From the NCBI RefSeq assembly GCF_003334255.1, contig NZ_QOWU01000073.1: a stretch of 18,664 nucleotides of DNA. One strand, written 5' to 3'. Of this stretch, positions 8,802 through 9,067 are shown piece after piece (position 1 is the stretch's first letter; each line of letters starts with the position of its first letter). The notes under the pieces were generated by a model. That model had not been told where the DNA came from. It saw only the letters and a program-made list of their open reading frames with translations, and did no database searches. The translations under genes were made by a program, and so were the position numbers. The DNA comes from Escherichia coli (GTDB taxonomy: Bacteria; Pseudomonadota; Gammaproteobacteria; Enterobacterales; Enterobacteriaceae).

Positions 8802-8815
8802 GTCTGATAAGGAGG

Positions 8816-8837
8816 ACGGGAGGCGTGCGCCTCCCGT
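8816..8837 (+). other. Perfect 10-bp stem hairpin (ACGGGAGGCG tg CGCCTCCCGT) after the capsid gene
   Basis: Perfect inverted repeat with a 2-nt central spacer. No T-run follows, so not a canonical terminator. Flanked by AAGGAGG (8809-8815) and ATG 8846. Confidence 0.5.
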
Positions 8838-8845
8838 AACAGGTT

Positions 8846-9067
8846 ATGGCAAAGATCCGATATCTGCAGGGCACGCATGATGCCCGGGCCGGGGATATCC
8901 GTGATGTGGCACAGCCGTGTGCGGAGGTGCTGGTTCGCCTGGGAAAGGCGGAGTACATCACGGTGCGACGTCCGGCAGGTCAGAAAAAGAAACGTGATGC
9001 GGAGCATGGCGAATGTGGAACCTTTTACGGCGAACCCGAAAAAACCAGAAATCAGGACGTGACGTAA
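8846..9067 (+). CDS. Hypothetical small protein, 73 aa, between capsid and portal
   Basis: Intact ORF whose last 55 nt overlap the portal start in another frame. No recognised motif. Confidence 0.35.
   Translation: MAKIRYLQGTHDARAGDIRDVAQPCAEVLVRLGKAEYITVRRPAGQKKKRDAEHGECGTFYGEPEKTRNQDVT

Follow-up and report, generated by a model that had tools for sequence, protein, structure and literature searches.

The window, i.e. the whole stretch of 18,664 nt analysed, corresponds to the late module of a lambdoid Stx-type E. coli prophage, and its DNA is 90-98% identical to that of long-tailed Stx-converting and related E. coli phages, namely JLK-2012, 2851, BP-4795 and YYZ-2008. DNA of this prophage occurs in 1244 of the 5426 complete E. 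coli genomes, one genome having as many as seven copies. The genes and features at and around the locus are as follows:

5139-6800: large terminase gene (PHROG search).
6864-8801, plus strand: prohead protease-major capsid fusion gene (PHROG 617, major head protein, E=7e-261).
8799-8810, plus strand: triple stop at the end of the capsid gene, TGA GTC TGA TAA (sequence reading).
8809-8815, plus strand: Shine-Dalgarno (SD) sequence AAGGAGG, immediately 5' of the stem (sequence reading).
8816-8824, plus strand: 5' arm of the hairpin, ACGGGAGGC (RNAfold and covariation).
8825-8828, plus strand: tetraloop GUGC (RNAfold).
8829-8837, plus strand: 3' arm of the hairpin, GCCTCCCGT (RNAfold and covariation).
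8838-8845, plus strand: spacer AACAGGTT, 8 nt, without usable SD (sequence reading).
8846-9067, plus strand: small conserved gene, 73 aa, PHROG 829 (PHROG search and ORF list).
9013-10377, plus strand: portal gene, PHROG 2271, the first 55 nt of which overlap the end of the small ORF.

Relatives of the capsid fusion gene carry the Pfam domains Peptidase_S78 and Phage_capsid, and its homologue in phage JLK-2012 is annotated as major capsid protein. In the window, the gene ends with GGC and the stop TGA at 8799-8801, followed in frame by GTC, a second TGA (8805-8807) and TAA (8808-8810), the latter overlapping the start of the SD; both variants encountered in E. coli, TGATAA and TGATGA, keep three stops, as opposed to the single TAA with which the capsid gene usually ends in relatives from other genera. 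Further downstream, ORF 10374-11435, which comes after the portal gene, contains at 10538-10969 a tandem repeat of 162 nt, or 54 codons (2.7 copies, 92% matches), each unit having an internal AAGGAGG (10572, 10734 and 10896). The homologue of this repeat-bearing gene in JLK-2012 is 54 codons longer (407 vs. 353 aa), and this difference in length suggests copy-number variation.

The ORF opened by ATG 8846 runs for 73 codons to position 9067 and is a real gene under purifying selection. Its coding signature is clear: for codons 1-38 in 62 distinct sequences, the entropy is 1.07 at the third codon position, compared with 0.43 at the first and 0.34 at the second. The N-terminus is conserved from the ATG onwards (MAKIRYLQ.THD..GD...V....A.VL..LG.AEY), and an upstream start is ruled out by the in-frame TAA at 8837-8839. 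Relatives from Salmonella, Pseudomonas, Burkholderia and Moraxella have a homologous small gene between capsid and portal, and in those from Stenotrophomonas and Ralstonia the homologue is found 3' of the capsid gene. In most relatives it comprises 55-56 codons and ends in KAENG, with a stop codon overlapping the portal ATG by 1 nt (L084:3440-3460, L098-L102); in the E. coli lineage this stop has been lost (GGC GAA TGT; window 9005-9067), which adds 18 codons to the ORF and takes it 55 nt into the portal gene, in a frame other than the portal one.

Regarding its product, AlphaFold2 run on a 23-sequence alignment predicts an N-terminal domain of about 40 residues with a β-β-α-β arrangement (pLDDT ~87) and a disordered, basic tail rich in Lys and Arg. 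A Pfam search with the small protein family returned no match. When the model was compared with the PDB using Foldseek, the top ~30 matches were almost all N-domains of the ribosomal protein bL9, with weak E-values (0.15-1), an rmsd of 0.8-1.5 Å over 39-40 aa, 25-32% identity and a target-length-normalised TM-score of 0.64-0.85, while YqbF from B. subtilis (PDB 2hjq) came at rank 38; the best PDB match of the family HMM was B. subtilis L9, again a weak one (E=0.23). These matches are suggestive of a resemblance between the modelled N-terminal domain and the rRNA-binding N-domain of bL9.

Between the capsid gene and the small gene, reading of the sequence confirms the order reported in the first-pass annotation, namely AAGGAGG (8809-8815), hairpin (8816-8837) and ATG 8846, and the distances it gave are right, 30 nt separating the last G of the SD from the A of the ATG and 8 nt once the hairpin is excluded. 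Its stem of 10 bp, for its part, has to be corrected: the inverted repeat ACGGGAGGCG/CGCCTCCCGT at 8816-8837 does comprise 10 + 10 nt with a 2-nt gap, but 10 bp would leave an impossible 2-nt loop and the RNA forms 9 bp closed by the 4-nt loop GUGC in RNAfold. Considered alone, this hairpin has a computed stability of -17.8 kcal/mol (RNAfold), and in every context tried (60-260 nt) the predicted pairing exceeds 99% for both of its arms, with the SD left 72-87% unpaired. The stem begins 14 nt past the capsid stop and ends 8 nt ahead of the next start. In an Rfam scan of the whole window, no family was hit at gathering score. Besides, two other ways in which such a fold could act were considered and rejected, that is a switch in which CCUCC of the 3' arm pairs with the upstream SD, as this pairing amounts to just 5 bp with a 14-nt loop and has on inspection no S-type counterpart (i.e. 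in the relatives with the GGCGGGG stem described below), and a site for RNase III, for which a stem of 9 bp is of insufficient length.

A stem-loop of this size could arise by chance. Within the 18.6-kb window, the post-capsid hairpin is the only perfect one of at least 9 bp with a loop of 3-8 nt, and 31% of dinucleotide shuffles of the window also hold at least one, so that the hairpin by itself is not significant and could in principle be a functionless inverted repeat. The composite motif, defined as a strong SD, at most 2 nt, a stem of at least 6 bp, 4-10 nt and ATG, occurs once in the window and is present in 5% of 1000 shuffles. Judged on the sequences compared, what is decisive against chance is conservation together with covariation: the layout persists with compensatory changes over many lineages, and these comparative data effectively refute a chance origin, the probability of which we regard as close to nil.

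Relatives of the small ORF were collected from phage records, IMG/VR viral contigs, a representative library of 1.84 billion proteins complemented with contig look-ups, and GTDB species genomes covering Citrobacter, Phytobacter, Kosakonia, Pantoea and Kluyvera, the scan of which gave five loci; in viral contigs, a search with P0055 yielded one usable locus and one with P0059 no match. The resulting comparison set comprises 87 distinct 177-nt upstream segments from enterobacterial prophages and from metagenome and virome contigs. The same layout is found in 85 of them, from E. coli, Salmonella, Kluyvera, Kosakonia, Phytobacter, Pantoea, further assemblies and virome contigs, and consists of the SD, no intervening nucleotide, a GC stem of 6-9 bp, a spacer of 6-8 nt without SD, and the ATG, the start reading ATG GCA AAA. 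The SD abutting the stem is (A)AGGAGG or GGAG in 85 of the 87 distinct relatives, and in the commonest type its last G doubles as the first base of the stem.

The geometry on the 3' side of the hairpin is constrained in length and free in sequence. The spacer has 7 nt in 53 of the 85 segments, another 25 having 8 nt and seven having 6 nt, and it is held at 6-8 nt while its sequence varies, as illustrated by the two E. coli types AACAGGTT and AGTAACAG, which are unlike in sequence and of 8 nt each. An SD within the spacer was sought in all the enterobacterial versions and none was found; AACAGGTT, AGTAACAG, ATATTGC, ATTTCAG and similar spacers contain at most an AGG 2 nt from the ATG, and this in one E. 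coli type only. On the 5' side, the distance from the capsid stop to GGAG is variable (2-11 nt in 55 distinct intergenic sequences), the whole gap between the two genes spanning 30-46 nt. A fusion of the capsid protein with the small ORF product by readthrough or frameshift was rejected on account of the three in-frame stops in E. coli and of these gaps of 30-46 nt, which keep no constant frame relation. The loop is of 18 kinds among the relatives (GAAA, GCGA, GAGA, GAAU and others), GNRA tetraloops being common; a mini-ORF that would start at GTG 8825 in the loop (GTG CGC CTC CCG TAA) was discarded as not conserved, the GTG being removed by the loop variants GCGA and GAGA.

Among the enterobacterial lineages with an intact upstream region, none was found without the hairpin. 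Of this locus, a prophage remnant of Citrobacter sp. Cu233 (L098:1440-1503) has kept just the small ORF with its spacer and the hairpin's 3' arm (…AAAACCCCGCCGTAATGC ATG), whereas the 5' arm, the SD and the capsid gene have given way to unrelated sequence; the presence of one arm without the other places the rearrangement breakpoint inside the hairpin. In some S-type relatives with the spacer ATTTCAG or ATTTCAA (L145, L130, L161 and others), RNAfold lengthens the stem by weak G·U and A-U pairs that join GGAG, in the SD, to UUUC, in the spacer; this extension, about 20 nt upstream of the ATG of the small ORF, would partly mask the SD and is not seen in the E. coli types.

The stems themselves differ between clades by compensatory and G·U changes, the main types being:

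E. coli type 1: ACGGGAGGC / GCCTCCCGT.
E. coli type 2: GCGGGAGGC / GCTTCCCGC.
Salmonella, Kluyvera and others: GGCGGGG / CCCCGCC.
L094: CGGGGGC / GCCCCCG.
L089: GGCGGGGCG / TGCCCCGCC.

Within E. coli, the basal pair has changed from A-U to G-C, with G·U intermediates in two relatives (L064 and L070). Covariation was counted on the six-pair core in a 30-sequence MAFFT alignment (A4), where 97.8% of cells are paired, the four unpaired ones resulting from alignment misregistration, and where three of the six pairs have changed on both sides. The covariation score is 0.277, as compared with 0.134 ± 0.017 in shuffles, none of the 500 reaching it, and in the controls where the 3' partners were slid by 1-3 columns it does not exceed 0.107, with at most 67% of cells paired; since most S-type stems are identical, this covariation is carried by a handful of lineages related by descent. 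Every single-sided change of the stem gives a G·U pair on the plus strand and a C·A on the opposite one, which assigns the structure to the plus-strand RNA. A role of the minus strand or at the DNA level was rejected on these single-sided changes and on the T-tract being on neither side.

We infer that ribosomes initiate from the upstream SD with the hairpin in between, and that the capsid message is stabilised or attenuated by this same hairpin. Concerning initiation, the GC-rich stem-loop would be constitutively folded in the late mRNA between the capsid gene and the small gene, the 30S subunit would pair with AAGGAGG just 5' of the stem, and the hairpin would loop out, such that the ATG located 8 nt beyond the stem would reach the P site; this assumes that the 30S subunit has room for the hairpin between SD helix and P site. 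With the hairpin looped out, the effective SD-start spacing would be 6-8 nt. The optimal distance in E. coli is 4-9 nt (PMC4611024), which the linear 30 nt exceeds and within which the effective spacing falls. The SD abutting the stem, the 6-8 nt kept between stem and ATG despite a changing spacer, and the lack of any SD in this spacer all point to structure-dependent initiation, as envisaged in the first half of the first-pass annotation, and it is reasonably probable that the element works as a split, accommodated ribosome binding site (RBS).

Termination-reinitiation would account for the same arrangement differently, in that the hairpin would be solely a 3' stabiliser or attenuator of the capsid message and the SD, instead of recruiting free 30S subunits, would hold ribosomes that have just finished the capsid cistron and reinitiate at the ATG, thereby tying the output of the small protein to capsid translation. 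The short distance between capsid stop and GGAG, 2-11 nt in all 55 distinct intergenic sequences within gaps of 30-46 nt, is in line with it, as is the fact that no relative, even with a conventional RBS, lacks a hairpin behind its capsid gene. However, it is the stop-SD distance that varies and the stem-ATG distance that is tightly held, and in distant relatives stop and start are 50-95 nt apart, so such a coupling is not general to the family. Reinitiation in place of a split RBS is plausible but rather unlikely; moreover, a retained ribosome must still bridge the hairpin, hence the two models overlap instead of one replacing the other.

The SD could also be vestigial and the whole a pure 3'-end element, stabiliser or weak terminator, with the small gene relying on weak SD-independent initiation at the A/U-rich spacer, or with the SD acting as a 30S-binding stabiliser similar to the STAB-SD elements, which are 30S-binding mRNA stabilisers in Gram-positive bacteria. 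Post-capsid hairpins are universal in the family and A/U-rich spacers occur in many lineages, which would suit this scenario, but a vestigial SD should decay, when (A)AGGAGG is near-invariant and always abuts the stem between variable flanks; that the gene is properly expressed is further indicated by its start context, AUG GCA AAA, and by the purifying selection acting on it. This alternative appears improbable, and the split RBS is retained as the preferred reading of the initiation region.

To our knowledge, hairpin-bridged split RBSs are textbook curiosities known mainly from two genes of phage T4, i.e. 38 and 25, the split translation initiation regions of which were reportedly described by Nivinskas and co-workers in 1999 and by Malys and Nivinskas in 2009. 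There, a hairpin cuts the SD-start spacing from 22 to 5 nt for gene 38 and from 27 to 11 nt for gene 25, mutations destabilising the hairpin reduce initiation, and T-even phages have conserved the hairpin, which more distant relatives lack (PMC3014915). The present element is alike in having an SD too distant linearly (30 nt, compared with 22 and 27 nt in T4), a hairpin predicted to restore the distance (8 nt, compared with 5 and 11 nt), and a distribution in which the hairpin is kept within one clade and absent from distant relatives with an ordinary RBS. All the sequence hallmarks of a T4-type split RBS are thus present, that is an SD too far from the start, a predicted hairpin restoring the spacing, no SD at canonical distance, and covariation. 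It differs from the T4 sites by its GC-rich stem of 9 bp (-17.8 kcal/mol) with a 0-nt SD-stem junction, by a stable insert of 22 nt where the T4 structures bridge 16-17 nt, a point that weighs against the split-RBS model, and by its occurrence in temperate lambdoid/HK97-like enterobacterial prophages instead of T-even phages, with an origin apparently in a post-capsid terminator. In the split RBS of thrS, a folded hairpin is accommodated without unfolding and parts an upstream single-stranded region from the SD-AUG domain (PMC3936740). Both sites would have a folded hairpin within the RBS, accommodated here by analogy; unlike in thrS, where the hairpin is not between SD and start codon, it does lie between them at the present locus. 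In the searchable literature, no description of this element was found, and papers on post-capsid stem-loops or on other split SD sites gave general context only.

The distant relatives give an indication of where the hairpin comes from. Seven are non-enteric, namely PAJU2, IME307, SOVA965, SBP39, Mcat5, Mcat9 and Ralstonia YO098_5, and the genera represented are Pseudomonas, Stenotrophomonas, Burkholderia, Ralstonia and Moraxella. In all seven, a GC hairpin with a T-tract, which is the canonical shape of a terminator, comes after the capsid stop, and the start of the small ORF lies further 3' of this hairpin, with intergenic gaps of 49-94 nt where measured. In six of the seven, an SD stands 3-5 nt ahead of this start, the exception being Ralstonia YO098_5, where there is no clear SD before the likely GTG start. 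Most of the relatives with an SD 3' of the hairpin have none 5' of it, which is clear for PAJU2, IME307, SOVA965, SBP39, Mcat5 and Mcat9. The SD is thus either 3' of the hairpin, in most non-enterics, or 5' of it, in enterics, and not on both sides, a pattern expected if the enteric upstream SD works. The enteric hairpin appears to descend from a post-capsid terminator, and the best reading is that an ancestral post-capsid stem-loop, either terminator or 3' stabiliser, was kept and that the downstream RBS was built around it.

The window has two other intergenic hairpins, both terminator-like, with T-tracts and with an AGGAGG on their 3' side at a normal spacing of 4-5 nt. One, at 6825-6842 (GAACCGC-TCCG-GCGGTTT and a T-run), precedes AGGAGG and the capsid start GTG 6864, and the other, at 12932-12946 (CCCGC-CGCGT-GCGGG and TTTTTT), precedes AGGAGG and the ORF at 12969. 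The order SD-then-hairpin is encountered solely at the post-capsid one among the three. With hairpins at 6825-6842 and 8816-8837, the capsid cistron is bracketed by stem-loops within one late operon.

As regards the second half of the first-pass annotation, a stability or processing element at the 3' end of the capsid message, a hairpin comes after the capsid gene in every distant relative and was never lost in intact enterics. Exact deletion of the hairpin would leave a canonical RBS of 8 nt, yet no intact lineage has lost it, which argues that it has been retained for something it does itself. Judging by the ancestral terminator form, it may either lower transcription downstream or protect the capsid message from 3' exonucleases. 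The likeness to intrinsic terminators after phage capsid genes resides in the GC-rich stem-loop right after the capsid stop, which the non-enteric relatives have with T-tracts; in contrast, the window hairpin is followed by AACAGGUU, without U-tract, and is consequently not a canonical intrinsic terminator. A terminator scan of the window did not report the post-capsid hairpin, and in some S-type relatives the stem is followed by the spacer ATTTTGC.

Stx-type phages transcribe their late genes with a Q-modified, terminator-resistant polymerase. Because of this polymerase and of the missing U-tract in the window version, a stabiliser or attenuator is favoured over true termination: the hairpin would impede 3'-to-5' exonucleases or attenuate weakly, to the advantage of the capsid cistron relative to the downstream genes. 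Intercistronic stem-loops, such as the REP elements in malEFG, protect upstream mRNA from 3' exonucleases. The post-capsid hairpin is comparable to these as a stable, untranslated stem-loop located after the most-needed cistron, and is distinct from them since it is not a REP sequence and is nested within the RBS of the next gene; its role as stabiliser of the capsid message is one that we purely infer.

The first-pass annotation had presented the two roles as alternatives. Both fit the comparative data, and it is the either/or that does not hold, as the two most likely operate together. The explanation we judge best, and consider fairly probable on comparative grounds, is that of a constitutively folded stem-loop with two roles, an inherited 3' element and an accommodated RBS. 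A more elaborate version, which we deem a long shot, would make of it a bifunctional stoichiometry switch, whereby termination at the stem, or an endonucleolytic cut in the A/U-rich spacer 3' of it, would produce a capsid mRNA ending in a protective hairpin and carrying an SD severed from its AUG; if this were true, a single event would both stabilise the capsid message and silence the genes downstream. The modelled bL9-N-like basic protein binding the hairpin and tuning such a switch is a possibility.

The hairpin could also be an operator, bound by a phage protein such as the small bL9-N-like basic protein or the capsid protein and repressing the small gene or those downstream, in a way resembling autoregulation by ribosomal proteins or repression by the MS2 coat protein. 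The S-type GGCGGGG-GAAA-CCCCGCC is far more conserved than its flanks, and the downstream product is predicted to combine the fold of an rRNA-binding domain with a basic tail. Nonetheless, stem sequence and length vary by clade and the loops are of 18 kinds, which goes against sequence-specific recognition, and the match to the bL9 fold is weak (E=0.15-1 with Foldseek, 0.23 with the HMM), making an operator very improbable.

In keeping with the preferred reading of an inherited 3' element combined with an accommodated RBS, the locus would be a naturally widespread split RBS in temperate phages, present in about one quarter of complete E. coli genomes, in Shiga-toxin phages and in several other Enterobacterales. 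What stands out is how stable the hairpin is, that it abuts the SD with a 0-nt junction, and that the element is widely distributed and can be traced to an origin; its evolution would have led, visibly, from "terminator, then SD" to "SD, then hairpin". On the practical side, start-site predictors needing a short SD-start distance would give ATG 8846 a low score despite the ORF being real. Finally, the locus would offer a convenient natural system both for the accommodation by the 30S subunit of a large folded insert between SD helix and P site and for the way phages may set their capsid-to-portal expression ratios within a single antiterminated late transcript.
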